Shown: positions 3,800-20,612 of the stretch, in pieces | Layout of the letters: the number at the start of each line of letters is the position of its first letter | How positions within the stretch are numbered: the stretch's first letter is position 1 | Source of the DNA: Planctomycetales bacterium | GTDB taxonomy: Bacteria; 4484-113; JAFGCY01 | NCBI GenBank assembly: GCA_022646745.1 | Contig: CP060262.1 | Span: 3,450,001 to 3,482,000 of the forward strand | Reading direction: 5' to 3' | DNA length: 32,000 nt | Position numbers and translations under genes: made by a program | The notes under the pieces: generated by a model | Database searches by the model: none | What the model saw: only the letters and a program-made list of their open reading frames with translations | What the model was told of the DNA's origin: nothing

Positions 3800-4465
3800 A
3801 TGAGTAAGGATGTGAAGATAAGGGATCTGGTGGTTCTGGGCCTGCTGTCCGACAACCCCCGCTACGGCTACGAGATCAAGATGATCATCGACAACGTGAT
3901 GAGCCACATTGTCGACATCAGCAGCGGCTCGCTCTACTACAGCCTTAAGAAACTGGAGAACAACGGCTTCGTGCGCGAGACCGGCACCGAGCGTGTCGGC
4001 AACCGCCCGGAGCGCAGCGTATACGAGATCACCGACGAGGGCCGCCGCATGCTGCGCCGTGAGCTGCCGAAGGTGATCTTCCCCCAGAGCCGGCCGATCT
4101 TCCCCGTCAACCTCGGCCTGTACTTCTTCGATGCCATCTCCGAGAAGGAGCAGTGCCGCCGCTTCCTGATCAAGGAAGCCTACCTGAAGCGCATCCTCGA
4201 ATACCACCGCGAGATTGACGAGCAGACCCGTGAGAACACCCCGCTGCGCCACCAGTTCATCATGCGCCACACCATCATGCTGATCGAGATGGAGATCGCC
4301 TTCTGCGAGGATGTGCTGTCCAGCCTGGTGGACCGCAAGCTCTACGAACTGGACGAGCGCGACCTTGAGGAGATCGACGACGAGTACGAGAACCTCAAGA
4401 AGACCATCCATGCCGACCAGGCCATCATCGAAAGCGAGCGCGACCGGGCCGCCAGCCAGAACTAA
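3800..4465 (+). CDS. PadR-family transcriptional regulator with a long acidic helical C-terminal domain
   Basis: 221-aa ORF. The N-terminal winged-helix pattern is typical of PadR: LVVLGLLSDNPRYGYEI, GSLYYSLKKLENNGFV, RSVYEITDEGR. GGAGGA lies 5 nt upstream of the ATG. Confidence 0.85.
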   Translation: MSKDVKIRDLVVLGLLSDNPRYGYEIKMIIDNVMSHIVDISSGSLYYSLKKLENNGFVRETGTERVGNRPERSVYEITDEGRRMLRRELPKVIFPQSRPIFPVNLGLYFFDAISEKEQCRRFLIKEAYLKRILEYHREIDEQTRENTPLRHQFIMRHTIMLIEMEIAFCEDVLSSLVDRKLYELDERDLEEIDDEYENLKKTIHADQAIIESERDRAASQN

Positions 4466-4471
4466 AAGCCG

Positions 4472-5155
4472 ATGATCAACTGGCGTGAACTGGATGCGGA
4501 GGAAGTACGCAGCTGTGTGCAGCTTGGCCTGCAAGGCGATGAGCGCTACATGCCGACAGGCTTCCTCGACACCCACCAGTGGCTGGCCCTCACCGGCATC
4601 CGCGGCATCTGCCTCGATGGCGGCTTCGAGCGGGCACAGTACCGCCTGGCCCATCCGGAGGACTCCCCCGCCCCGTTGCACTTCGCCAGCATCGACCCGG
4701 CCAGCCTGCCGGGCAATGCGCGCACCGTGAATGGCCTGCGCACCATGCTGCGCAGCAGCTCCCTGCCGGATTCAGCCATTGGCGACATCTACCTGGACGA
4801 CCGCTTCAGCCTCGCGCTCAGCTCGCAGGTCTTCCTTGACGACGCAGGCATTGAAGCGGACTATGCTGCCACCCCGCCAGCCCTGTCCCTGCCGGAGGAA
4901 CGGTTGACCGCCGCCTCACTGCGTGCGGACGCCGTTGTCAGTGCGGCATTCAGGGTCAGTCGCGCTGAGGCGCAGAAGGCGATCCAGTATGGCTTCGTGT
5001 TCAGTGATTACGTGGTGATCGGCAAGCGCACCACCGATTTGCAGGCCGGCCAGCGCCTGGTCTACCGCACGAAGGGCAGCCTGGACATCGTTGACAGCGG
5101 CTTCAACCCGCGCAGCGGGCGCAGCTGGCTCCTGATCCGCCGCCTGACGGCCTGA
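4472..5155 (+). CDS. S4-domain RNA-binding protein, YlmH-like
   Basis: 227-aa ORF starting 6 nt after the PadR stop. The C-terminal S4 pattern is LRADAVVSAAFRVSRAEAQKAIQYGFVFSDYVVIGKRTTDLQAGQRLVYRTKG. The N-terminal FLD motif resembles YlmH. Confidence 0.7.
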   Translation: MINWRELDAEEVRSCVQLGLQGDERYMPTGFLDTHQWLALTGIRGICLDGGFERAQYRLAHPEDSPAPLHFASIDPASLPGNARTVNGLRTMLRSSSLPDSAIGDIYLDDRFSLALSSQVFLDDAGIEADYAATPPALSLPEERLTAASLRADAVVSAAFRVSRAEAQKAIQYGFVFSDYVVIGKRTTDLQAGQRLVYRTKGSLDIVDSGFNPRSGRSWLLIRRLTA

Positions 5156-6166
5156 TTACAGGAAGCCAAATGGCCTGGCAACGGCCTCGGTCGCTTCCAG
5201 CTCACGGGGCACGACCCGGTTGCGTCCGCCTTCCTTGGCTTCGTACAGCGCCTCATCCGCCAGCTTCATCAGCTCATCCGCCGTTGTCACCGCCTGCGCT
5301 GGCACCGACAGCATGCCGATCGAGATCGTGACCGGAATGCGTTTGCCGACCCAGTTGATGTCCGTCTCCTCTATGGTGGCACGGACACGCTCGGCGATCA
5401 TCACGCCATCCTCATATCCGGCGTCCGGCAGCAGGATCACGAACTCCTCACCACCGATCCGGCCGAACACGTCACTCTTGCGCTTGGTCTGGTCCACCAG
5501 CTGCGCGAAGGAGCGCAGGATGAAGTCCCCGGCGAGGTGGCCATGGGTGTCATTGATCGACTTGAAGTGGTCGATGTCCATGTACAGCATGCAGTAGGGC
5601 GATTCGTTACGGCGGGCGCGCGCCATTTCCTCGGCGACACGGATGAAGAACATGCGGCGGTTGTAGATCCCGGTCAGCACATCCGTACTCGCCAGGTGGT
5701 CCAGCTCCTGCATGCGTTCCTTCAGCTCATCCTGCAGCATCTTCACCCGCACCATCGAGGACAGCGTCGCCAGCAGCTCCACGTCGTCATAGGGCTTGCG
5801 GTGCAGGAACATCCCGCCGTAGTACTGCGCCTCCATCAGGGTCGGGTAGTCGAAGTCATCCGAGGTCGTGAAGGCCAGCGGCAGGTCCTTGTACTTCTCC
5901 ATCGACTTGATGTGCTGGGCGATCTGGAAGCCGTTGAGCGGATCGTCGATTGTGATCACCGCGGCGTCGATGCCCTTCTCCTCGAGCAGGCGCACGGCCT
6001 CTTCCTGGGTGGTGGCACAGAAGGTCTCATAGTTGAACAGGCTGACCAGCTCCGCCAGCAGGCAGTTGTGGTCCATATTGTCATCTACAACCAGTATCTG
6101 AGCCGCGCCTTCGGTCATCAGGGGGATTATCGGCAGGGTTATGTTAGAATTCAGCCGTGCTGACAC
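5156..6166 (-). CDS. Response-regulator diguanylate cyclase (REC + GGDEF)
   Basis: The REC domain shows the VVDDN acidic pair, ITIDDP, TTS and KP. The GGDEF domain has a GGEEF active site and an RKSD I-site five residues upstream. The track start at 6166 is GTG; ATG at 6118 (MTEGAAQILVVDD) is an alternative start. Confidence 0.92.
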   Translation of the reverse strand: MSARLNSNITLPIIPLMTEGAAQILVVDDNMDHNCLLAELVSLFNYETFCATTQEEAVRLLEEKGIDAAVITIDDPLNGFQIAQHIKSMEKYKDLPLAFTTSDDFDYPTLMEAQYYGGMFLHRKPYDDVELLATLSSMVRVKMLQDELKERMQELDHLASTDVLTGIYNRRMFFIRVAEEMARARRNESPYCMLYMDIDHFKSINDTHGHLAGDFILRSFAQLVDQTKRKSDVFGRIGGEEFVILLPDAGYEDGVMIAERVRATIEETDINWVGKRIPVTISIGMLSVPAQAVTTADELMKLADEALYEAKEGGRNRVVPRELEATEAVARPFGFL

Positions 6167-7728
6167 CCAAGGCGGGCATTGACCCAGAATTCTTCCAATG
6201 CCTCAGGAAGCATGACCCGCTTGATCCACAGGTCAGCCTTGCAATCATCTTCTCCCGCATCACCCTCGACCTCTGCAACCGCATCCTCACCGCGCGCAGT
6301 GCCGCCCGGCGTGAGATCCCGCAGCAGCTGGACGGATTGCAGCTGGCCTTCTTCAATGAATACGCCCAGCACGGTGCCGAGGCCTTTGCCTCCGGTGCAT
6401 CCGCCCTGTCCGCCGCAGCACTCGACAGCGAAATGGCCACGATGCTGGCCGACACCGCCCACTGGCTGGCAGGCCTGCTGAACCTTAACGCGCTTGAGGA
6501 CAGCTCCTACCAGGTCTGGCTCAGCGATGACCCGCAGGCCCGTATCAGCCTCTACGGCAAACCGGCCCCCGTCGCCCCGCCGGACTTCATCCGGCTGGAA
6601 AAGCGGCATCCGGCACTCGACTGGATCGAGGCCAATGCCCACCGCCCGGCCCAGGTGATGGGGCATTACGACGTACACGGCATCTCGATGCTGGCCCTCA
6701 CCCGCCGCTTCCTTACGTCACACGGCATGCCACAGGTGGACTGTACATTCAACTTCGAATCCACCGGCGACATCAGCAAGCTGTGGAAGCGTGTCGTGCC
6801 GCGCGCGATTGCCAGCGAAGAGGACTACGGCACGGTTGTGATGGTGGACTGCAGTGTGCACTCCCGCCGCCCGGAGTACACCCAGAAGGCGATCAGCCGG
6901 CTGGACTCCAGCGAGGACAGCATGATGTTCCTCGTGGACCACCACTCCGACACCCTGCTGCAGGCCCCGGACCTCTTCCATCCCCGCCTGCGCGTCGTGC
7001 TGACTGACATCCTCTCCTGCGGCCTGACGGACCGCTGGGGCCGGCATGAGCTGGACCTGATGTACCTCGGCGCTCTCGGCGACAAGGTTCCCGAGGTGTC
7101 GGTCTCCCGCCCGCCGGCTGAGCATCCCGAGCTGTACAGCGCCAATGAACAGTTCCACGCCTGGATGATCAACTACAGCCCGACCCCGAAGGAAATGAAG
7201 GACCGCCATATCCAGCCCCTGCAGAAGCTGTGGGAGGCGCTGGCGGATGGCGCGGCGGTCAGCCCGGACTCCAGCACGAAGATCCTCGGGCAGAGCCTTG
7301 ATACCGCCGCAGAGTTCGAGCCTGAGTGCAGCCCGGTGGGCGAGATCCTGCTGATGACCACGAAGCTGCCCAGTGTCGGGCGCACCTGGTACGGCCTGCT
7401 GGAGCAGCTGATGCAGCGCCATGAGCGCAGCTATGCGCTTGCCCTGCGCGTGCTCGGTGACAACCGTGCCAACCTGCTGCTCCTGACCCACTGGACGGCG
7501 ATCCACCGCGCCCCGGTGCGCATGTTCATCCCGGAGCGCTACCAGGGCAACTGCATCGGCCATCCGGGAGCGGTCTGGGTGGACCTTGAGCGCCAGCAGG
7601 CAACGGACTTCATCCGCTCCACGGTGGACGCACTCAACCAGTTCTATGGCGTGGAAGCTGACATCGGCAAAGCGCTTTCCGAACTGCAGGGCAATGTGCT
7701 GTACCCGCAGGAGGAGTGTCGGTCTTAG
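6157..7728 (+). CDS. DHH/DHHA1-like phosphoesterase-family protein with an uncharacterised ~150-aa N-terminal region
   Basis: 523-aa ORF. Motif-like strings occur in the canonical DHH order: GHYDVHGISMLAL (motif I with DVH instead of DxD), VVMVDCS (II), FLVDHHSD (III), GALGDKVPEV (IV, RecJ-like), and IGHPGAV (possible DHHA1 GGGH-like). The start is uncertain: 6157 is GTG and overlaps the divergent GGDEF ORF. Confidence 0.55.
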   Translation: MLTPKAGIDPEFFQCLRKHDPLDPQVSLAIIFSRITLDLCNRILTARSAARREIPQQLDGLQLAFFNEYAQHGAEAFASGASALSAAALDSEMATMLADTAHWLAGLLNLNALEDSSYQVWLSDDPQARISLYGKPAPVAPPDFIRLEKRHPALDWIEANAHRPAQVMGHYDVHGISMLALTRRFLTSHGMPQVDCTFNFESTGDISKLWKRVVPRAIASEEDYGTVVMVDCSVHSRRPEYTQKAISRLDSSEDSMMFLVDHHSDTLLQAPDLFHPRLRVVLTDILSCGLTDRWGRHELDLMYLGALGDKVPEVSVSRPPAEHPELYSANEQFHAWMINYSPTPKEMKDRHIQPLQKLWEALADGAAVSPDSSTKILGQSLDTAAEFEPECSPVGEILLMTTKLPSVGRTWYGLLEQLMQRHERSYALALRVLGDNRANLLLLTHWTAIHRAPVRMFIPERYQGNCIGHPGAVWVDLERQQATDFIRSTVDALNQFYGVEADIGKALSELQGNVLYPQEECRS

Positions 7729-7764: not shown

Positions 7765-7860
7765 CCATTTGCCGCTTCCCCCGTTGCGGGATATCATCAC
7801 CATGTCATATCGGGGCAAGTTCCGGGAACATATCCGGGGGCCCCGCCGTCTTGGTGCACT

Positions 7861-9285
7861 ATGCATGACCGGCTGAGACCGGTCCGCCAACAGATGCAGT
7901 TTGGAGGAAGAGCATTGAAACATATCGCGGCCCTTGGGCTGACCCTATTGTTACTGGCAACACAATCCGCTTTCGCCGGCAGCGCCGGTGATGTGGAGGA
8001 TGTCTACCTCACCGTCTACAACGGCAACCTCTCGCTGATCCGCGAGCTGCGCAGCTTCGAGCTGTCACAGGGCAGCCAGGCGCTGGTGCTTGACGACGTC
8101 TCCGGCCAGCTCAACCCGGCCACCGTGCACCTCTCCTTTCCCGAGGGCGTGGACTTCGAGTTGCTGGAGCAGAACTTCGACTACGACCTGGTGAACACCG
8201 CGAAGATGCTTGAGCGCTTCATCGGGCGCGAGATCACGCTGCACAATGACTACGACGGCACGCGCATGCTGGTCACGCTGTTGTCAACCAGCGGCGGCAC
8301 CGTGGTGCGCGATTCCGCCGGCCAGATCCTGCTCAACCCGCCGGGCCGCATCATCCTGCCGGCCGGCAGCGCTGATGAACTGCTGCTCAGGCCGACCCTG
8401 TCCTGGCTGCTCTGGAGCCAGCAGGCCGGCCGCCAGCGCGGCGAGATCAGCTACCTCTCCGGCGGGCTGGACTGGAACGCTGACTACGTGCTTATGCTCA
8501 ATGCCGACGATACTGCAAGCGACCTGGAGGGCTGGGTCACGCTGACCAACAACAGCGGCACGACCTACAAGGACGCCCACCTGAAACTGGTGGCCGGAGA
8601 TGTCAACCGCGTGCGCGAAGAGCTTGGATATGCACTAAATGATTTGGCTGGCACGGTAGCACAAAATGGAATGGGTGGCGGCGGCGGTTTCCAGGAGGAA
8701 TCCTTCTTCGAGTACCACCTCTACGACCTCGATCGCCCCACCACCATCAGGAACAGCCAACAGAAGCAGATCGGCCTGCTGACCGCCAATGATTTCCCTG
8801 TCAACAAGAAGTTCCTGTTCAACGGGCAGTACGGTGGCGACGTGCGTGTCGCCGTCGAATTCACCAACAGTGAGGAGGAGGGGCTCGGCATGCCACTGCC
8901 GGCCGGCGTCGTGCGCGTGTTCAAGGCTGACAGCAAGGGCCAGGCCCAGTTCGTCGGTGAGGACCGGATTGACCATACCCCGCGCGATGAGGACCTCTCA
9001 ATCTACATCGGCAACGCCTTCGACATCGTCGGCGAGGCCACCCAGCTGGACTACACCGACATCGGCCAGGGCTATACCCAGAGCTATAAGGTCGTGCTGA
9101 AGAACCACAAGGAAGGCGAGGACGTGGTCGTCACCGTGCGGGCGGACATCGGCGGCGACTGGCAGATGGACAGGAGCAGCCTGCCCTGGCAGAAGAAGGA
9201 TGCGACCACCGCGGAATGGGAAGTGCCCGTTCCCGCGGATGGTGAAACTGAACTGACCTACACCTACCGTGTGGTCTGGAGGTAA
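7861..9285 (+). CDS. Secreted DUF4139/DUF4140-like (TIGR02231, MuiA-like) protein, paralog 1
   Basis: 474-aa ORF. The likely real start is TTG 7915 (GGAGGA 6 nt upstream, giving KHIAALGLTLLLLATQSAFA as signal peptide) or ATG 7894. The family-like N-terminal pattern is VYLTVYNGNLSLIRELRSF..LDDVSGQLNPATVHLSF..LEQNFDYDLV. It aligns along its whole length with the next two ORFs. Confidence 0.8.
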   Translation: MHDRLRPVRQQMQFGGRALKHIAALGLTLLLLATQSAFAGSAGDVEDVYLTVYNGNLSLIRELRSFELSQGSQALVLDDVSGQLNPATVHLSFPEGVDFELLEQNFDYDLVNTAKMLERFIGREITLHNDYDGTRMLVTLLSTSGGTVVRDSAGQILLNPPGRIILPAGSADELLLRPTLSWLLWSQQAGRQRGEISYLSGGLDWNADYVLMLNADDTASDLEGWVTLTNNSGTTYKDAHLKLVAGDVNRVREELGYALNDLAGTVAQNGMGGGGGFQEESFFEYHLYDLDRPTTIRNSQQKQIGLLTANDFPVNKKFLFNGQYGGDVRVAVEFTNSEEEGLGMPLPAGVVRVFKADSKGQAQFVGEDRIDHTPRDEDLSIYIGNAFDIVGEATQLDYTDIGQGYTQSYKVVLKNHKEGEDVVVTVRADIGGDWQMDRSSLPWQKKDATTAEWEVPVPADGETELTYTYRVVWR

Positions 9286-9287
9286 GA

Positions 9288-10682
9288 ATGGCGATCAGGT
9301 TACTGGCAATCACGCTGCTGGCATCATGCATGCTGGCGATTTCCGCGAACTGGAGCACCGCGATGGCTAAGGACGCAGGCAAGGTCGAGGACCTCTACAT
9401 CACGATCTACAACGGGGACCTCGCGCTCGTCAAGGAGAAGCGCAGCTTCAGCCTGCGCGAGGGACGGCAGGGCTTCACGCTTGACAACGTCAGCGGACGG
9501 CTCAACCCCTCCACCGTGCACCTCTCCTTCCCGGAGGGCGTGGATTTCGAGCTGCTGGAGCAGAACTTCGACTACGACCTCGTCAGCATGGACAAGATGC
9601 TGGAGAAGTTCATCGGCCGCCCGATTTCACTCGTGACAACGAACGATGACGGCACGGAAAGTTCGCAGCAGGTGACCCTGCTGTCAACCTCCGGCGGCCG
9701 CGTGATGAAGGACTCCGAGGGTCAGATCCTGCTCAACCCGCCGGGCCGCGTCGTGCTGCCTGCCGGCTCAGCCGATGAGCTGCTGCTGCGCCCTACCCTG
9801 TCCTGGGACCTCTGGAGCGGCCAGTCCGGCAGCCAGACCGGTGAGATCAGCTACCTCTCCGGCGGGCTGGACTGGAAGGCTGACTACGTCGTGATGCTCA
9901 ACGCTGACGACACCGCCGCTGACATCGAGGGCTGGGTCACTCTCACCAACAACAGCGGCACCACCTTCGAGAATGCCACTCTCAAGCTCGTGGCCGGCGA
10001 TGTCAACCGCGTGCGGGACGAACTGCGCCGCAACATGCCGATGCCGGCCGCGGCCCCGATGATGAGTGAAGCCAAGCCCGGCGGTTTCCAGGAGGAAAGC
10101 TTCTTCGAGTACCACCTCTACGACCTGCAGCGCCCGACCACCGTACGCAACAACCAGCAGAAGCAGATCGGCCTGCTGACCGCCACGAGCGTCGGCACGA
10201 AGAAGCTGTTCATCTTCGACGGCCACTACGGCGGTGATGTCAGCGTCAAGGTGCAGTTCGAGAACAGCGAGGAGAACAACATGGGCATGCCGCTGCCGAA
10301 GGGCGTGGTCCGTGTGTTCAAGGCCGACAGCAAGGGCCAGGCCCAGTTCGTCGGCGAGGACCGCATCGACCATACCCCCAAGGATGAGGACGTGCGCCTG
10401 ACGATTGGCAACGCCTTCGACATCAAGGGCGAGACGGTGCGCAAGGACTACCAGGACATCGGCAAGGGCTTCACCGAAAGCTGGGAGATCACGCTCAAGA
10501 ACCACAAGGAAAGCGAGGACGTGGTCGTCACGGTGCCCTTCCGCATCGGCGGCGACTGGAGCATCATGCAGTCTTCGATCGACTACGTGAAGAAGGATGC
10601 CAACACGGCGGAATTCAGCGTGCCCGTCCCGGCGGATGGCGAGACCAAGTTCACATTCCAGTACCGTGTGGTGTGGAGGTAG
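9288..10682 (+). CDS. Secreted DUF4139/DUF4140-like protein, paralog 2
   Basis: 464-aa ORF starting 2 nt after the paralog 1 stop. GGAGG lies inside the last codons of paralog 1 (TGG AGG TAA). The signal peptide is MAIRLLAITLLASCMLAISANWSTAMA. It is very similar to paralog 3. Confidence 0.85.
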   Translation: MAIRLLAITLLASCMLAISANWSTAMAKDAGKVEDLYITIYNGDLALVKEKRSFSLREGRQGFTLDNVSGRLNPSTVHLSFPEGVDFELLEQNFDYDLVSMDKMLEKFIGRPISLVTTNDDGTESSQQVTLLSTSGGRVMKDSEGQILLNPPGRVVLPAGSADELLLRPTLSWDLWSGQSGSQTGEISYLSGGLDWKADYVVMLNADDTAADIEGWVTLTNNSGTTFENATLKLVAGDVNRVRDELRRNMPMPAAAPMMSEAKPGGFQEESFFEYHLYDLQRPTTVRNNQQKQIGLLTATSVGTKKLFIFDGHYGGDVSVKVQFENSEENNMGMPLPKGVVRVFKADSKGQAQFVGEDRIDHTPKDEDVRLTIGNAFDIKGETVRKDYQDIGKGFTESWEITLKNHKESEDVVVTVPFRIGGDWSIMQSSIDYVKKDANTAEFSVPVPADGETKFTFQYRVVWR

Positions 10683-10685
10683 GCA

Positions 10686-12071
10686 ATGAAGCGAAGCATG
10701 GCAACACTGCTGCTGGCCTGCTGCATGCTGGCATTTTGCGCGGCACCGCGTCCGGCAATAGCAAAAGAGGCAGGCGATGTGTCCGAGCTGTACATCACGA
10801 TCTACAACGGCGACCTGGCGCTCGTGAAGGAGAAGCGCAGCTTCAACCTTGCCAGCGGCCGCCAGCAGTTCATCCTTGACAATGTCAGCGGGCGGCTTAA
10901 CCCCTCCACCGTGCATCTCTCCTTCCCGGAAGGTGTCGACTTCGAGCTGCTGGAACAGAATTTCGACTACGACCTCGTCAACATGGACAAGATGCTCGAG
11001 AAGTTCATCGGCCGCGAGCTGACGCTCGTTGACGACTACCAGAAGACCGAACAGCGTGTCACCCTGCTGTCAACCTCCGGCGGCCGTGTGGTGAAGGACT
11101 CGCGCGGACAGATCCTGCTCAACCCGCCGGGCCGCATCGTGCTGCCCTCCGGCAGTGCTGACGAGCTGCTGCTGCGCCCGACCCTGTCATGGGACCTGTG
11201 GGCTGGCAAAGCCGGTACGCATACCGGCGAGATCAGCTACCTCTCCGGCGGGCTGGACTGGAAGGCGGACTACGTGGTGATGCTGGCTGCTGACGACGCC
11301 TCCGCAGACATTGAAGGCTGGGTCACGCTCACCAACAACTCCGGCACCACCTTCGAGAATGCCAACCTGAAGCTCGTGGCCGGGGATGTCAACCGCGCAC
11401 CGGAATACGATGGCTACGCAGATGACATGTACATGATGGCCGACGCAGAAATGGCGCAGGAGGCTCCGGGTGGCTTCGCCGAGGAATCCTTCTTCGAGTA
11501 CCACCTCTACGACCTGCAGCGTCCGACCACCGTGCGCAACAACCAGCAGAAGCAGATCGGCCTGCTGACCGCCAGCAGCATCAGCACGAAGAAGCTGTTC
11601 GTGTTCGACGGACGCAACGGCGGGGATGTCAGCGTGAAGGTGCAGTTCGAGAACAGCGAGGAGAACAACATGGGCATGCCGCTGCCGAAGGGCGTCGTCC
11701 GGGTGTTCAAGGCTGACAGCCGCGGCCAGGCCCAGTTCGTCGGCGAGGACCGCATCGACCACACCCCGCGCGATGAGGATGTGCGCCTGACGATCGGCAA
11801 CGCCTTCGACATCAAGGGCGAGACCGTCAGGAAGGACTACAAGGACATCGGCCGCGGCTATACCGAGACCTGGGAGATTACGCTGAAGAACCACAAGGAG
11901 AGCGAGGACGTGACGGTGACCGTCCCATTCAACATCTGGGGCGACTGGAGCATCTTCTCCTCCACCACCGATTACGTGAAGAAGGACGCCAACACCGCCG
12001 AGTTCAAGGTGGATGTGCCCGCTGACGGTGAGACCAGCTTCACCTTCCAGTACCGCGTGGACTGGCGCTAG
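10686..12071 (+). CDS. Secreted DUF4139/DUF4140-like protein, paralog 3
   Basis: 461-aa ORF starting 3 nt after the paralog 2 stop, again preceded by TGG AGG TAG. The signal peptide is MKRSMATLLLACCMLAFCAAPRPAIA. Confidence 0.85.
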   Translation: MKRSMATLLLACCMLAFCAAPRPAIAKEAGDVSELYITIYNGDLALVKEKRSFNLASGRQQFILDNVSGRLNPSTVHLSFPEGVDFELLEQNFDYDLVNMDKMLEKFIGRELTLVDDYQKTEQRVTLLSTSGGRVVKDSRGQILLNPPGRIVLPSGSADELLLRPTLSWDLWAGKAGTHTGEISYLSGGLDWKADYVVMLAADDASADIEGWVTLTNNSGTTFENANLKLVAGDVNRAPEYDGYADDMYMMADAEMAQEAPGGFAEESFFEYHLYDLQRPTTVRNNQQKQIGLLTASSISTKKLFVFDGRNGGDVSVKVQFENSEENNMGMPLPKGVVRVFKADSRGQAQFVGEDRIDHTPRDEDVRLTIGNAFDIKGETVRKDYKDIGRGYTETWEITLKNHKESEDVTVTVPFNIWGDWSIFSSTTDYVKKDANTAEFKVDVPADGETSFTFQYRVDWR

Positions 12072-12073
12072 GC

Positions 12074-12502
12074 ATGGCTGGCCAGACTGCCTTCGTTGAT
12101 AACGACTTCTGCTTCGCCTGCGGGGCGCTCAACCCCGCCGGCCTGCAGCTGGTGTTCGAGCGCGACGGCGATGTGCTCTTCACCCGCTTCCGCCCCAGCC
12201 AGCTCCACCAGGGCTGGCGCGATGTGCTGCACGGCGGGGTGCAGGCCACGGTGTTCGACGACCTGATGAGCAACTGCATGTTCCGTATCCACGGCCTCGG
12301 CGTGGTGACCGCGGAACTGACCACCCGCTTCCGCTCACCGGTGCCACTGGACCGGGAACTGGAGTTCCGCGCCTGGCTGAGCGGCGGCAAGCGTCCGCTG
12401 TGGGAGCTTAGCGCGGAGTGCCGGATCCACGGAGAAAGCGGCGGCCGGCCGCTGTCCACGGCGAAGGGGCGCTTCATGGAGACGCCGACGGAGGGGCGCT
12501 GA
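12074..12502 (+). CDS. Hotdog-fold (PaaI/4HBT-type) thioesterase
   Basis: 142-aa ORF starting 2 nt after the paralog 3 stop. It has the N-terminal CFACGALNPAGLQLVF motif and LHGGVQATVFDDLM. No signal peptide. Confidence 0.75.
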   Translation: MAGQTAFVDNDFCFACGALNPAGLQLVFERDGDVLFTRFRPSQLHQGWRDVLHGGVQATVFDDLMSNCMFRIHGLGVVTAELTTRFRSPVPLDRELEFRAWLSGGKRPLWELSAECRIHGESGGRPLSTAKGRFMETPTEGR

Positions 12503-12571
12503 GCAAGTTGCGGGTTTTTAATTATGGGGCGGCCCGCCGATTAGGTATGTGACCAAAGCCAGGAGTTTCCG

Positions 12572-13522
12572 ATGTACAGACTTGCTCTGCCGGTCCTGCT
12601 GCTGATCCTTGCACTGGCCGGCTGTGGTTCCGGGGATTCCGAGATCATCTCGGACAACCTCGTTGAGAAGGTGTTCAACAACGGCGAGGCCGCGCGCCTC
12701 GAACTGGCCAGTGGCGCGTACGTGGACTTCCCGAGCGGCACCTTCGCCGACCGCCAGGTGGTGAGCATCTCCGACCTGCTCAGCGGTTCGGACAACGTGG
12801 CCACCACCTTCCCGACCACCACGAAATCCATCAATGACCGGATCGGCGCGCTGATCATCAACAGCCCGGTGGATGCCCTGTTCGAGCGGGACATCACCGT
12901 GCGCATGAAGCTGGACAGCGCCCAGACCCCCGGCACCGAGTTCGTGCTTTACATCCACGACTCCGACCTGGGCAGCCGCACCGAGACCTACGACAACAAC
13001 TACGTCACCTGGTACCGCTACGGCAGCTACATCGCCACCGTGGACAGCACCGGGATCTACGCCACCTTCACGCTGGACACCGACGGCAACCGTGGCTTCA
13101 TCGGCACGCTGGCCGTGTTCCGCAACCACACGCTCTCAGACATGGGCAGCGCAGCCACCACCACTGTCAGCGGCCGCGTGCTGGACAAGAACGGATCCGG
13201 CGTCAGTACCGATGTGGAGCTGAGCTACCTCGTGGGCGAGGAGCGCTACCCGGTACGCCTGCTGAACGGAACTATCCCGAGCGGCGGCAGTGTGGCCAGC
13301 GTGGTTTTCAGCGACGCCAGCGGAAACTTCAGCATGCAGGTGCCGGACTTCTACATCAGCCAGATCTTCAACGTGAGCTTTGCGGTGCATGACAGCAACC
13401 GCAGCGAGCAGGATGAGTTCGTGGTGAACCTGCCCTATCCGATCCGTGAGGATGAGGTGAACAACCTCGTTATCCGCTACGGTGAAAACAACATTGTTTC
13501 TGAGCCTGTCGGAACGATCTGA
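12572..13522 (+). CDS. Lipoprotein with a carboxypeptidase-regulatory-like (CarboxypepD_reg) C-terminal domain
   Basis: 316-aa ORF with AGGAG 7 nt upstream of the ATG. The lipobox is LLILALAGC. The VSGRVLDKNGSGVSTDVEL...SDASGNFSMQVP pattern is present. Confidence 0.7.
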   Translation: MYRLALPVLLLILALAGCGSGDSEIISDNLVEKVFNNGEAARLELASGAYVDFPSGTFADRQVVSISDLLSGSDNVATTFPTTTKSINDRIGALIINSPVDALFERDITVRMKLDSAQTPGTEFVLYIHDSDLGSRTETYDNNYVTWYRYGSYIATVDSTGIYATFTLDTDGNRGFIGTLAVFRNHTLSDMGSAATTTVSGRVLDKNGSGVSTDVELSYLVGEERYPVRLLNGTIPSGGSVASVVFSDASGNFSMQVPDFYISQIFNVSFAVHDSNRSEQDEFVVNLPYPIREDEVNNLVIRYGENNIVSEPVGTI

Positions 13523-13552
13523 TCACTCAGGCGTTAACAGGGTTTAAGTCCG

Positions 13553-13583
13553 AGGCGGGGTCTGCTCAGGCCCCGCCTTTTTA
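13553..13583 (+). terminator. Intrinsic terminator closing the DUF4139-thioesterase-lipoprotein operon
   Basis: GGCGGGG (13554-13560) pairs with CCCCGCC (13571-13577) and is followed by TTTTT (13578-13582). It lies 30 nt after the stop at 13522. Confidence 0.8.
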
Positions 13584-13643
13584 GTTAACAGTGGACAGTG
13601 GTCAGAAGTCAGACCTTGAATTTGCCTTTCTGACCACTGACTA

Positions 13644-13673
13644 CTGACCACTGAGTACTGATTCATGTATAAT
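13644..13673 (+). promoter_or_regulatory. Candidate sigma70 promoter for tRNA-Leu
   Basis: CTGACC (13644-13649), an 18-nt spacer, then perfect TATAAT (13668-13673), 17 nt before the tRNA 5' end. It overlaps a 12-bp inverted repeat, CAGTGGTCAGAA (13597-13608) / TTCTGACCACTG (13627-13638), and tandem CTGACCACTGA units. Confidence 0.45.
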
Positions 13674-13690
13674 CTCAGTCCCCTTTGCCT

Positions 13691-13773
13691 GCGGGAGTGG
13701 TGGAATGGCAGACACGCAAGATTAAGGATCTTGTGAGCGAGAGCTCGTGGGGGTTCGAGTCCCCCCTTCCGCA
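13691..13773 (+). tRNA. Class II tRNA, hand-folded anticodon AAG (Leu); no encoded CCA
   Basis: Acceptor GCGGGAG/CTTCCGC with one G-T pair. Anticodon stem CAAGA/TCTTG with loop TTAAGGA. Long variable arm GAGC-GAGA-GCTC. T arm GGGGG-TTCGAGT-CCCCC. Discriminator A. Confidence 0.85.
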
Positions 13774-13969
13774 GATTTCAGATTTCCCTCATTCATGTCT
13801 GCCATCCGTTGCTGCAGCTCCAGGACGATGCAAATCCTCCAGCTCACCATCCCTTCCCGGAAACTATTCACTATTGCATATTTTCACGAATTATTTGTCA
13901 TTACCTTGACTTTGTATTTGTATTCAGGTAAACATATGTATCGTGACTCCAAGGGGAGGAAGGAAGGAT

Positions 13970-18593: not shown

Positions 18594-18745
18594 TCCGGAG
18601 CCGCGTTGCGTAGTCACGCAGTGACGAAGCTGCGCAGGCTCTCCTTAGCAATGAGTAGGGAGCAATGAGCAATGAGCCAAACTCAGCCTGAGGTTATCTC
18701 GCAGCCAGCCTGACTCATTGCTCACTCTTCATTGCTCATTGCTGG
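18594..18745 (+). repeat. Repeat family A, copy 1 (152 bp), left flank of the low-GC cassette
   Basis: A gapless hand alignment to 20717-20868 gives 131/152 identical positions. It contains CCGC-GTT-GCGG, GTCAC-GCA-GTGAC and self-complementary (GCAATGA)n / (TCATTGC)n arms. Confidence 0.9.
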
Positions 18746-18807
18746 CAGTCCGGGAAGGAGCTGCCCGCTTTAGCGGCAGTAGGCGCAGCGTTAGGAGTCA
18801 CACTGAA

Positions 18808-20055
18808 ATGATTAATCTGATTATGATTCTTGCAGTTCAATGGTTCATCTTCAGTCAGAGCAGCACACATATCGAAAGCAATGACCGAGTTTTTCCTGTG
18901 TCAGGAGTCGATGTAAACTCTCAGACATTGAACTTATCAAACTATCATTCTGGTATTTTCACAGAAGAGTTCACCTACTCGAATGTAAGAGTTCTTGATA
19001 GAAATATTGATGGCTTTCATGCAGTCTTGTCGGACGGAGCAAAATCCTCCAAGCTATTTTTTGTTGGAGACTCTGTTTTGAAGTTTGATATTTCACCCTA
19101 TTATTTTGAAAATTTTATAACGGCCCGCAGAACGAGTGATTATTGGGAGTTTTGGGTTATCAAACACGGAGAGTTATGCTTTGCAGATTATGATGACGAA
19201 CAGATTTCAGCAGATCCAACGATTATAATGAATGTGGATGTTTCAAATCATAACTACATAATACTTACAGATGATGACAATCTGTATATACTTGATTCTT
19301 CTGGCCTTACAAATATCGACTGTAGGAGCAAGATGATACTGTGGTCTATCAAGACACCAGAGATAGACAATATTTCAAATTCATTTCTATATTCATGGGA
19401 TGGTAATGTTTGCATTGCCTATAATGGTGGTGTGCTATGTTTCAATCCGATAAGCGGCAAGAAAACCAAATCCATAGAGTGGAGCATGCCAATTGATGAG
19501 ACTGTCAGAAGATTTGAAATAGAAGACTCTTTGGATTTGAGTGAACTACATGGTAAAAGTTCATATTTGAATATACAGAATATTGTAAACACCCGAACTA
19601 GTACTTATATCATGCTACCAATGTGTATAATCAATGATGGTTCACCTGAATGTACCTATTTTAGAATCCTTGCAAGCTATTGTTACGAGAGTGATCGCTG
19701 GCTATATGTAACAGGGACTCCAGATTTTCAAATTTACAGTAGCGCTGTTCTGGGAGATGATGCCCATGCTGTACTAGTGTATAGTGATCAAAGAATTAAA
19801 CTACAGAGAAGAGAGCACACTATATATTCAGTCGGAGATCGATTTGCAGCAATCATCGTGAATGATCTGAGCAAATCACAAATCGAAAGAAGGATCGATG
19901 TTTATGACAATCTTCATGGCACTTTTGCTACATTTGATGTAGGAGACGCAATACCAGTTTTTCTGCATTGTACTAATGATGGAACCATTGTGTTTGATCT
20001 CGAAAACAACATATATTGGATAGATGATGTCAGTGGAACTCCATCATTGCGCTAA
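18808..20055 (+). CDS. Hypothetical secreted or membrane-anchored protein encoded in low-GC DNA, possibly beta-propeller-like
   Basis: The track ORF 18718-20055 begins inside repeat A1. The ATG at 18808 has AGGAG 10 nt upstream and gives MINLIMILAVQWFIFSQS as a hydrophobic N-terminus. Segments such as NLYILDSSGLTNIDCRSKMILWS and GGVLCFNPISGKKTKSIEW resemble PQQ-type propeller blades, but only weakly. Confidence 0.65.
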   Translation: MINLIMILAVQWFIFSQSSTHIESNDRVFPVSGVDVNSQTLNLSNYHSGIFTEEFTYSNVRVLDRNIDGFHAVLSDGAKSSKLFFVGDSVLKFDISPYYFENFITARRTSDYWEFWVIKHGELCFADYDDEQISADPTIIMNVDVSNHNYIILTDDDNLYILDSSGLTNIDCRSKMILWSIKTPEIDNISNSFLYSWDGNVCIAYNGGVLCFNPISGKKTKSIEWSMPIDETVRRFEIEDSLDLSELHGKSSYLNIQNIVNTRTSTYIMLPMCIINDGSPECTYFRILASYCYESDRWLYVTGTPDFQIYSSAVLGDDAHAVLVYSDQRIKLQRREHTIYSVGDRFAAIIVNDLSKSQIERRIDVYDNLHGTFATFDVGDAIPVFLHCTNDGTIVFDLENNIYWIDDVSGTPSLR

Positions 20056-20069
20056 AGTTAGACAATATA

Positions 20070-20612
20070 ATGACTAATCAAAAGAAGTCTTCTGTAGCTA
20101 CAGTACCCTACATGCTATGCGTTATCGTAGTGTCCGTTTCTGTTGCTCTCATTTCATCATGTGATAAATCGAACAAGCATTCAACAAAATCACCAACCAT
20201 ATCCAGTACTGACGCGCAGCTACCCGCCGACTGGCCTATAAATGAGCTGAAACTTCCAGAGAATGTTAATTGGAGTGAATTACCACCTCATATTAGATTT
20301 GCCGGTAACAAATATCATTACTTCAATGACATCTCAAATGCCAGTGAAGAGAATTGGGTAGTAGGATTCAATCGTTCTGGGCTCTACTGGGAAGAAGTAT
20401 CAGAGTTGGCAAAGACTTCCTTGCTTGATTCAGGTTTCATTCTTGATCCCAACCCGACTTATCCAAATGATAAACAGATGAATGAATATATCAGCGCTGA
20501 TGGAAAAACCAGTGTACGGGTTTACTTCAGCCATTTTGAAGCTTCAAAAATGGATACCATTAACAATAGTGCTGATACGTTTATTTATTTCATTCATATT
20601 GATAAGCAATAA
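20070..20612 (+). CDS. Hypothetical lipoprotein encoded in low-GC DNA
   Basis: 180 aa with a hydrophobic segment and the lipobox-like VALISSC. I recognise no family. Confidence 0.6.
   Translation: MTNQKKSSVATVPYMLCVIVVSVSVALISSCDKSNKHSTKSPTISSTDAQLPADWPINELKLPENVNWSELPPHIRFAGNKYHYFNDISNASEENWVVGFNRSGLYWEEVSELAKTSLLDSGFILDPNPTYPNDKQMNEYISADGKTSVRVYFSHFEASKMDTINNSADTFIYFIHIDKQ

Follow-up and report, generated by a model that had tools for sequence, protein, structure and literature searches.

Introduction

To our knowledge, MuiA of Pseudomonas aeruginosa is the only member of the DUF4139/DUF4140 family with any phenotype. MuiA is transcribed by the extracytoplasmic function (ECF) sigma factor SbrI, which SbrR restrains as its anti-sigma factor, and the inducers of MuiA are osmotic shock, D-cycloserine and overexpression of CtpA (PMC10418997). 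On DUF4139, DUF4140, TIGR02231, PF13598 and PA1494, a literature search turned up only incidental mentions besides a paragraph about MuiA in a review. Here we describe an operon for proteins of this kind in a 32,000-nucleotide (nt) stretch of DNA from an uncultured Planctomycetales bacterium (GCA_022646745.1, contig CP060262.1, positions 3,450,001 to 3,482,000), which is matched exactly by a contig of GCA_020440665.1 and is referred to below, at its full length, as the window. In this operon three tandem genes for exported paralogues, D1, D2 and D3, are followed by genes for a cytoplasmic thioesterase and a lipoprotein. The reading that we prefer, with a probability of about one half, is that the D proteins are tandemly amplified, MuiA-like exported envelope-stress proteins to which the thioesterase-lipoprotein pair was added later.

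The D proteins resemble MuiA (PA1494) and the proteins of TIGR02231 (the 'mucoidy inhibitor MuiA family') in their predicted export and in pairing a DUF4139-like with a putative DUF4140 domain, and weak matches to TIGR02231 (best E 6.2e-7) were found for 10 members of an alignment of 30 full-length D relatives of 39-81% identity. In contrast to MuiA, the D proteins of the window are shorter (about 455 residues), form a tandem triplet, have no TIGR02231 match and match DUF4139 below threshold, and their genes lie behind those for PadR, GGDEF and DHH-like proteins rather than behind a recognisable ECF pair.

ECF sigma factors and anti-sigma factors precede about a fifth of distant D homologues

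In the sigma-E/RseA/RseB and AlgU/MucA/MucB operons, the gene for the anti-sigma factor is followed by one for a periplasmic partner. Our survey of gene neighbourhoods distinguished the window lineage, defined as loci with D identity of 50-100%, from a distant set of full-length D homologues of 39-50% identity, to which one-genome-per-species contigs and metagenomes contributed 80 loci each. The distant loci came from Planctomycetota, Desulfobacterota, NC10, Nitrospirota, Omnitrophota, Gemmatimonadota, Acidobacteriota, Bacillota, Methanosarcina and others; the metagenome scan had been aimed at the range of 50-85% identity but gave only relatives of at most 46%, and its loci therefore form part of the distant set. 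All open reading frames (ORFs) lying up to 5 kb from a distant D gene were clustered, and the recurrent pair was then identified by Pfam. This pair, on the same strand and directly upstream of D, combines an ECF sigma factor with a zf-HC2 anti-sigma factor whose periplasmic part is of the DUF2275 or TPR kind. In a survey with profile hidden Markov models (HMMs), both proteins were present at 21 of the 96 distant loci whose upstream sequence extends for 2.5 kb or more (L015, L021, L023, L026, L035, L037, L047, L072, L083, L094, L098, L105, L113, L116, L118, L131, L139, L145, L150, L153 and L166; loci are given by their survey handles throughout). The ECF matches were not scattered, 24 of 27 lying 1.0-2.4 kb upstream on the D strand. 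Those triads derived from genomes came from metagenome-assembled genomes labelled delta proteobacterium, NC10/Methylomirabilales, Nitrospirae and Baltobacteraceae.

The layout of sigma-E/RseA/RseB is matched at these distant loci, where an ECF sigma factor, a membrane anti-sigma factor and an exported D protein are encoded in the same orientation and the end of the anti-sigma gene lies 74-370 nt before D (25 loci). The resemblance is one of layout: D has no sequence or fold similarity to RseB or MucB, and the arrangement is absent from the window itself. The transcription of MuiA by SbrI under envelope stress likewise parallels the ECF pair upstream of 21 of the 96 distant D homologues. The triad of ECF sigma factor, anti-sigma factor and D is unmentioned in the papers that full-text searches for DUF4139, DUF4140, TIGR02231 or PF13598 turned up, and its occurrence at about a fifth of distant loci gives the DUF4139/DUF4140 family a concrete context.

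Because the ECF and anti-sigma pair is the sole strongly recurrent partner of D, we read the D proteins as envelope-stress or envelope-homeostasis proteins, a role that we infer from this association and from the MuiA precedent. They would reside in the periplasm or the cell envelope, act in an envelope-stress or envelope-homeostasis response, and most likely have binding or structural functions rather than being classical enzymes. In the window lineage, the D gene would have left the ECF context and moved behind the block of PadR, S4-like, GGDEF and p523 genes described below. There tandem amplification would have produced two or three copies, which diverged and were each kept by purifying selection, and the thioesterase and lipoprotein genes would have entered together downstream of the array in one sub-clade.

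Family membership and predicted export of D1, D2 and D3

The genes for D1 (7915..9285, 456 residues), D2 (9288..10682, 464 residues) and D3 (10686..12071, 461 residues) lie in tandem on the + strand, and their products are DUF4140/DUF4139-like paralogues that are predicted to be exported. D2 and D3 are 81% identical, which agrees with an earlier estimate of about four positions in five, and D1 is 66-68% identical to D2 and D3. By inspection, all three N-termini are signal-peptide-like, lack a lipobox and end in AxA motifs (D1 ...SAFA/G, D2 ...TAMA/K, D3 ...AIA/K), and comparable N-termini are present in 30 of the 30 aligned relatives; these signal peptides point to export by the Sec pathway and to the localisation proposed above. 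The original prediction, made from the sequence of the window, had described three secreted tandem paralogues of 461-474 residues. The tandem order, the gaps of 2 and 3 nt and the signal-like N-termini stand, but the start of D1 is revised. A GGAGGA box lies 7 nt upstream of a TTG codon at 7915, and box and TTG are both kept in three relatives, whereas the alternative ATG codons at 7861 and 7894 are not; D1 therefore most likely starts at TTG 7915 and has 456 residues. Gene calls on contigs identical to the window agree with this start.

The assignment to DUF4139 and TIGR02231 is sound as to superfamily and does not extend to TIGR02231 itself. D1, D2 and D3 match PF13598 (DUF4139) over nearly the full profile, with E values from 7e-5 to 2e-6, but at 23.1, 23.5 and 28.1 bits they lie under the gathering cut-off of 31.8. 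PF13600 (DUF4140) matches D3 weakly, at residues 37-83 (14.8 bits, E 0.039), and in an NCBIfam scan neither TIGR02231 nor any other model matched the three proteins at E<=0.01. Among the 30 aligned relatives, PF13598 is matched by 25 (42-81% identity, best E 6.9e-14) and PF13600 by 8 (E<=1e-3). The D homologue search gave at least 7999 significant sequences among 8000 candidates scored, the distant full-length relatives being 39-50% identical; many homologues carry precomputed PF13598 matches, and 'DUF4139 domain-containing protein' is the label on those with an NCBI name. Since full-length relatives match PF13598, PF13600 and TIGR02231, membership of D1, D2 and D3 in the DUF4140/DUF4139 superfamily is judged secure by transitivity, and they belong to a short subfamily (about 455 residues) of this MuiA-like superfamily. 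The subfamily is very widespread in bacteria and is also found in Methanosarcina, usually with one gene per locus; the homologues number more than 8000 clusters at 90% identity, and carriers include at least 586 species-level genomes from many bacterial phyla and from Methanosarcina. The archaeal members are full-length homologues (44-45% identity) in Methanosarcina and related archaea (L014, L022, L024, L028, L029, L036, L038 and L042), with a second copy nearby at L022 and L029. Upstream of the archaeal D genes, on the opposite strand, is a gene for a PKD/DUF11 surface protein, as assigned by Pfam on the cluster member from L038.

Duplication history and selection

The triplication had been thought recent, a view that the comparison with relatives contradicts. 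In a neighbour-joining tree each D paralogue of the window pairs with its own orthologue from L010 (85-86% identity in all cases; D1 86%, D2 85%), and the triplication therefore predates the split between the window and L010. D2 and D3 differ by a synonymous divergence (dS) of 0.57, much like the orthologues against L010 (0.46-0.55). Because the longest run of identical nucleotides shared by D2 and D3 is 59 nt, there is also no sign of ongoing gene conversion between them. On these three grounds, both a recent triplication and gene conversion were ruled out.

All operon genes and each D copy are under purifying selection. The ratio of non-synonymous to synonymous divergence (dN/dS) between orthologues is 0.05-0.30 for the five operon genes together with p523, and 0.07-0.25 for the D paralogues overall (D1 0.16-0.17, D2 0.07-0.25). 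Against the close relative L008, dN is 0.043-0.050 for D1 and D3 and 0.004-0.015 for D2, the thioesterase, the lipoprotein and p523, such that D1 and D3 have accumulated 3-5 times the non-synonymous change of the other genes; the paralogues therefore evolve at uneven rates.

Tandem duplication of D has arisen independently several times, more than one copy being present at about 10 of 158 distant loci. Independent tandem copies are found at L012, at L013 (near-identical), at L172 and at L097 (three copies), and the copy number within the window lineage varies from 1 to 3. At L097, a metagenome contig, the three tandem genes occupy 8001-12455; their products are 37-42% identical to D3 and cluster together in the tree.

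It is conceivable, though in our judgement unlikely, that the locus reflects fortuitous adjacency and plain amplification, the D array being a set of copies for dosage or surface variation and the thioesterase and lipoprotein being unrelated genes that are merely read through. The repeated independent origin of tandem copies, the variable copy number within the lineage, the faster non-synonymous change of D1 and D3 and the lack of a fixed downstream partner for distant D homologues would all be expected under such an account. It does not sit well with an L010 orthologue for each paralogue and dN/dS values of 0.07-0.25, which indicate that the D copies are individually maintained and are not turning over, nor with the thioesterase-lipoprotein pair holding its position across deep divergence. 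Because the copies have diverged and each is under purifying selection, paralogues that are sub-functionalised or that assemble with one another would fit better than mere dosage, and individually conserved tandem paralogues of this kind offer a natural system in which to address the question of hetero-oligomers.

The thioesterase and lipoprotein are additions within one sub-clade

The fourth gene (12074..12502, + strand) encodes a protein of 142 residues without a signal peptide which is, as judged by its motifs and its PF03061 match (37.2 bits against a cut-off of 20.6), a cytoplasmic hotdog thioesterase of the 4HBT family with predicted catalysis. Its HGG...D helix motif LHGGVQATVFDD is kept in 5 orthologues, as are the motifs CFACGxxNPxGL and HGGxQxTxxDD. 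The protein resembles the THEM4/THEM5-like and PaaI-like 4HBT acyl-CoA thioesterases in its PF03061 match, its HGG...D motif and its N-terminal CxxCG...NP.G motif. It differs from them in that its nearest solved structures, 2prx and human THEM5 (4ae7), are matched at only 19-20 bits, in that no NCBIfam model, the PaaI models included, matched it at E<=0.01, and in the unusual placement of its gene 2 nt after a gene for an exported protein. The proposal of a signal-less thioesterase following D3 by 2 nt is therefore confirmed as far as the hotdog 4HBT fold is concerned, but not as to the PaaI type. Since the gap after D3 is 2 nt and no Shine-Dalgarno sequence lies upstream of the thioesterase gene, its translation is probably coupled to that of D3.

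The fifth gene (12572..13522, + strand) encodes a lineage-restricted lipoprotein of 316 residues with the lipobox LAGC at residues 15-18, of which the Cys is kept in all four divergent orthologues. Its homologues amount to 8 clusters, plus remoter orthologues at 29% identity. A pattern recognisable by eye, 'GRVxD..G.G..TDV...SDxxGxF...VP', is kept among the orthologues. The lipobox upholds the earlier call of a lipoprotein, but the CarboxypepD_reg domain that had been suggested for it gained no HMM match in four orthologues: no Pfam family, CarboxypepD_reg included, was matched at E<=10 by the window protein or at E<=1 by the orthologues from L007, L170 and L173. An AlphaFold2 model of the lipoprotein is beta-rich and of low confidence (predicted local distance difference test, pLDDT, 59; C-terminal third mostly <50), and Foldseek returned no match to this model at E<=1e-3.

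Within the window lineage, D neighbourhoods fall into three tiers. The first has the order PadR, S4-like, GGDEF (- strand), p523, two to three D genes, thioesterase and lipoprotein, and comprises the window group, L007, L170 (without PadR), L173 and the contigs of P0034 and P0054; at L173 an NmrA/SRPBCC gene stands between the D array and the thioesterase. The second (L171 and L172) shares the upstream block, which is followed by one to two D genes and then TatA, with no thioesterase or lipoprotein. In the third (L012 and L174), p523 and one to two D genes lie behind a TetR and resistance-nodulation-division (RND) efflux operon. The order of thioesterase and lipoprotein is kept in six lineages, at identities down to 49% for the thioesterase and 29% for the lipoprotein, and the downstream flanks differ. 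Both genes are absent from the sister lineages L171, L172, L012, L013, L174 and L175. At the distant loci, about 160 in number, tblastn found no match to either protein, and HMMs built from the orthologues gave only two marginal hotdog matches on the opposite strand (E about 0.004-0.006), which were discounted as noise. A Pfam scan of 126 immediate downstream ORFs at distant loci revealed no recurrent family, and 4HBT was not among the 25 commonest.

As the pair is found in six related lineages and at 0 of about 160 distant loci, it is an acquisition of one sub-clade that has since been retained, and not a general partner of the D family. Co-conservation of the thioesterase and lipoprotein with D thus extends to six related lineages but not to the sister lineages or to the distant loci. 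The five-gene arrangement of the window is a lineage-specific elaboration rather than a general module; its composition is undescribed and its distribution narrow, and its parts belong to catalogued families or are lineage orphans.

The original prediction went further and saw a dedicated envelope system in the operon. In its full form, with all five products acting together and the cytoplasmic thioesterase mechanistically required, for example in acyl release or editing for the lipoprotein or for a lipid ligand, this appears to us quite improbable. The 2-nt gap between D3 and the thioesterase without a Shine-Dalgarno sequence suggests the translational coupling that such a system might use, the order of array, thioesterase and lipoprotein persists in six lineages despite 49% and 29% identity and differing downstream flanks, and purifying selection acts on all five genes. 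Weighed against this are the sister lineages that lack the pair (L171 and L172, where TatA takes its place, and L012, L013, L174 and L175), its absence from about 160 distant loci by tblastn, profile HMMs and Pfam analysis of the 126 downstream ORFs, and the NmrA/SRPBCC gene that separates array and thioesterase in L173. We also know of no pathway that joins a 4HBT thioesterase with exported beta-sandwich proteins. With six lineages keeping the pair and the sister lineages and distant loci lacking it, support for a dedicated system is weak. Under our preferred reading of D as MuiA-like envelope-stress proteins, the thioesterase and lipoprotein form an accessory pair with a possible functional tie to D. 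The link to the thioesterase, for which the case is weak, would if true tie exported proteins to acyl metabolism in the cytoplasm in an unusual way.

Structure of the D proteins and weighing of their proposed role

An AlphaFold2 model of D3 is all-beta (pLDDT 84), with a disordered Met/Ala-rich loop at residues 244-269 (about 238-265 of D3 in the family alignment). The position and the length (about 25 residues) of this loop are kept across the D family, and its sequence is variable, making it the least conserved segment. In most members Met accounts for about 10% of the loop, against about 2.3% overall, an enrichment of about four-fold; D1 is an exception within the family, with a Gly-rich loop containing a single Met. 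This flexible loop is a candidate interaction element. A PDB sequence search with the D profile returned nothing significant. Homology to Ribophorin I/Ost1 was considered and rejected: yeast Ost1 chains were the top Foldseek matches (E 7e-5), but the template modelling (TM) score was 0.14 and the hhalign profile probability 1.3%. Likeness of D3 to mu-homology domains, ERAP and integrins was set aside as generic beta-sandwich similarity.

Several points weigh against a role for D in envelope stress with an accessory thioesterase-lipoprotein pair. As no ECF sigma factor or anti-sigma factor was found in the 32 kb of the window, the envelope-stress role would be a transfer from relatives, which are 39-45% identical. 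The D proteins of the window fall short of the curated thresholds for DUF4139 and TIGR02231 alike, and the Foldseek search of D3 against the PDB gave only weak matches (Ost1, mu-homology domains, ERAP and integrins, with TM scores of 0.1-0.3). Polar residues that are invariant in the D family (E90, Q91, N92, D96, H273, K289, R339, K342, D344, E354, H359, E364 and D375) could mark a catalytic site, and as such count against a purely structural role. Finally, the flanks have changed among six divergent genomes in which the array nonetheless keeps its thioesterase-lipoprotein pair, and this retention suggests a real functional tie more than the word 'accessory' conveys.

The invariant polar residues and the Met-rich loop would also be compatible with enzymatic or metal-binding D proteins, and a reading in which D acts on an envelope polymer, or handles Cu(I) or Ag(I) by way of the loop, has to be considered, although we rate it as very unlikely. 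Acidic, His and Lys residues are among the many that are invariant across the 30 sequences of 39-81% identity, the loop is enriched in Met in most members, and the RND efflux operon that precedes the p523-D module at L012 and L174 encodes a membrane-fusion protein with domains of the CzcB/CusB type. That context is confined to two loci, however, the loop is the least conserved part of the protein and has one Met in D1, and searches of Pfam, NCBIfam and PDB sequences linked the D proteins to no family of enzymes or of metal-binding proteins. PADLOC found no anti-phage defence match for D, p523 or the lipoprotein.

The upstream block and p523

Four genes upstream of the operon make up the block behind which the D genes of the window lineage lie. 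The first (3800..4465, + strand) encodes a PadR-family regulator that is 100% identical to an L006 gene product with PF03551; it is a conserved neighbour outside the operon and is kept in L007, L171, L172, L173 and the contigs of P0034 and P0054. It is followed on the + strand (4472..5155) by a gene for a protein of 227 residues with a weak S4-like C-terminus (Pfam S4, 13.3 bits, sub-threshold), which has orthologues in L007, L170 and the P0054 contig and genes of the same size at its position in L171 and L173. The third gene (5156..6118, - strand), divergent from p523, encodes a response-regulator diguanylate cyclase, as judged from PF00990 (GGDEF) and a weak Response_reg match on the identical L006 gene; its translation contains a GGEEF motif with an RxxD I-site, RKSDVFGRIGGEEF, and it is kept at every lineage locus of the PadR type.

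The fourth gene, p523 (6157..7728, + strand), encodes a cytoplasmic protein with a DHH-like phosphoesterase fold and is, within the clade, the most consistent neighbour of D, lying upstream of it in L007, L010, L011, L012 and L170-L174. In lineage loci of the PadR type, p523 and the gene for the GGEEF regulator are divergent and about 40-100 nt apart. The match of p523 to Pfam DHH (PF01368) is sub-threshold at 17.6 bits against a cut-off of 28.1, with relatives reaching 21-24 bits. The motifs HYDxHG, DCSxHSR, DHHxDT, GALGDK and GHxxAxW are invariant across 17 homologues, and we take the first four to be DHH-family motifs I-IV. As in the DHH/DHHA1 phosphoesterases (NrnA, GdpP, PggH and RecJ), p523 keeps the series D-x-H, D, DHH and D followed by a GH motif, and it adjoins a GGDEF cyclase, as would suit an enzyme that degrades a nucleotide signal. 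It differs from them in its sub-threshold DHH score, in an extra N-terminal region of about 160 residues and in the tiny size of its lineage-restricted family, which has 55 representatives among 1.84 billion proteins. A PDB sequence search with p523 gave nothing significant. On these motifs, p523 may be a phosphodiesterase of a nucleotide second messenger.

The most elaborate alternative, in which the short D family is an RseB/MucB-like periplasmic sensor or modulator that partners zf-HC2 anti-sigma factors, has a fold without any solved relative, was rewired in the window lineage from ECF control to a cyclic di-GMP circuit (a GGDEF response regulator and a DHH-like phosphoesterase) and expanded there into a complex of three paralogues acting with the lipoprotein and the acyl-thioesterase, strikes us as very unlikely.

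Transcription signals and flanking features

The five genes lie on the + strand between 7915 and 13522 and are separated, according to the ORF listing, by 2, 3, 2 and 69 nt; their ORFs span 7861-9285, 9288-10682, 10686-12071, 12074-12502 and 12572-13522. A promoter scan placed a sigma-70-like promoter at 7769..7797 on the + strand (TTGCCG, a spacer of 17 nt, and TATCAT). Alignment of the D1 leaders shows that L008, L010 and L011 keep its -10 region, GGATATCATCA, along with parts of the -35. The -10 region, a GGAACAT box, the Shine-Dalgarno sequence GGAGGAA and the TTG start are common to the leaders of the window and these three relatives. In L010, two unrelated genes on the reverse strand are found between p523 and D1, and the D promoter region is nonetheless kept; because it is retained despite a different upstream gene, the D operon has its own promoter. 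The ORFs inserted in L010 (5593-6897, minus strand) encode a protein of 251 residues and a cysteine-rich protein of 159 residues, both with signal-peptide-like N-termini. No riboswitch or other known RNA was detected in the 5' leader of D1.

An intrinsic terminator with a 12-bp stem, 8 G-C pairs and a following T-run closes the operon at 13552..13583 on the + strand, where a terminator had been expected, and a terminator scan called none inside the 69-nt gap between the thioesterase and lipoprotein genes. The proposal of a five-gene operon is upheld: gene spacing, the conserved promoter and the terminator together support a single transcription unit from the promoter at 7769-7797 to the terminator at 13552-13583.

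Downstream of this terminator is a tRNA-Leu gene (13690-13774) with its own promoter-like site. Two sets of repeats lie between the terminator and the tRNA gene and overlap the -35 of that site: an imperfect inverted repeat of 24 nt at 13589-13660 (13589-13612 and 13637-13660, 83% complementary), and a tandem direct repeat of 14 nt, CTGACCACTGAxTA, at 13630-13657. Further downstream, a segment of about 2 kb (18718-20612) is low in G+C, at 0.37-0.45 against about 0.62 in the surrounding sequence. Its ORFs, of 445 and 180 residues, had no Pfam or PADLOC match. The segment is missing in L008, in which the methylmalonyl-CoA-mutase/MeaB fusion gene comes straight after the PKD-domain gene, and it is probably a recent insertion.

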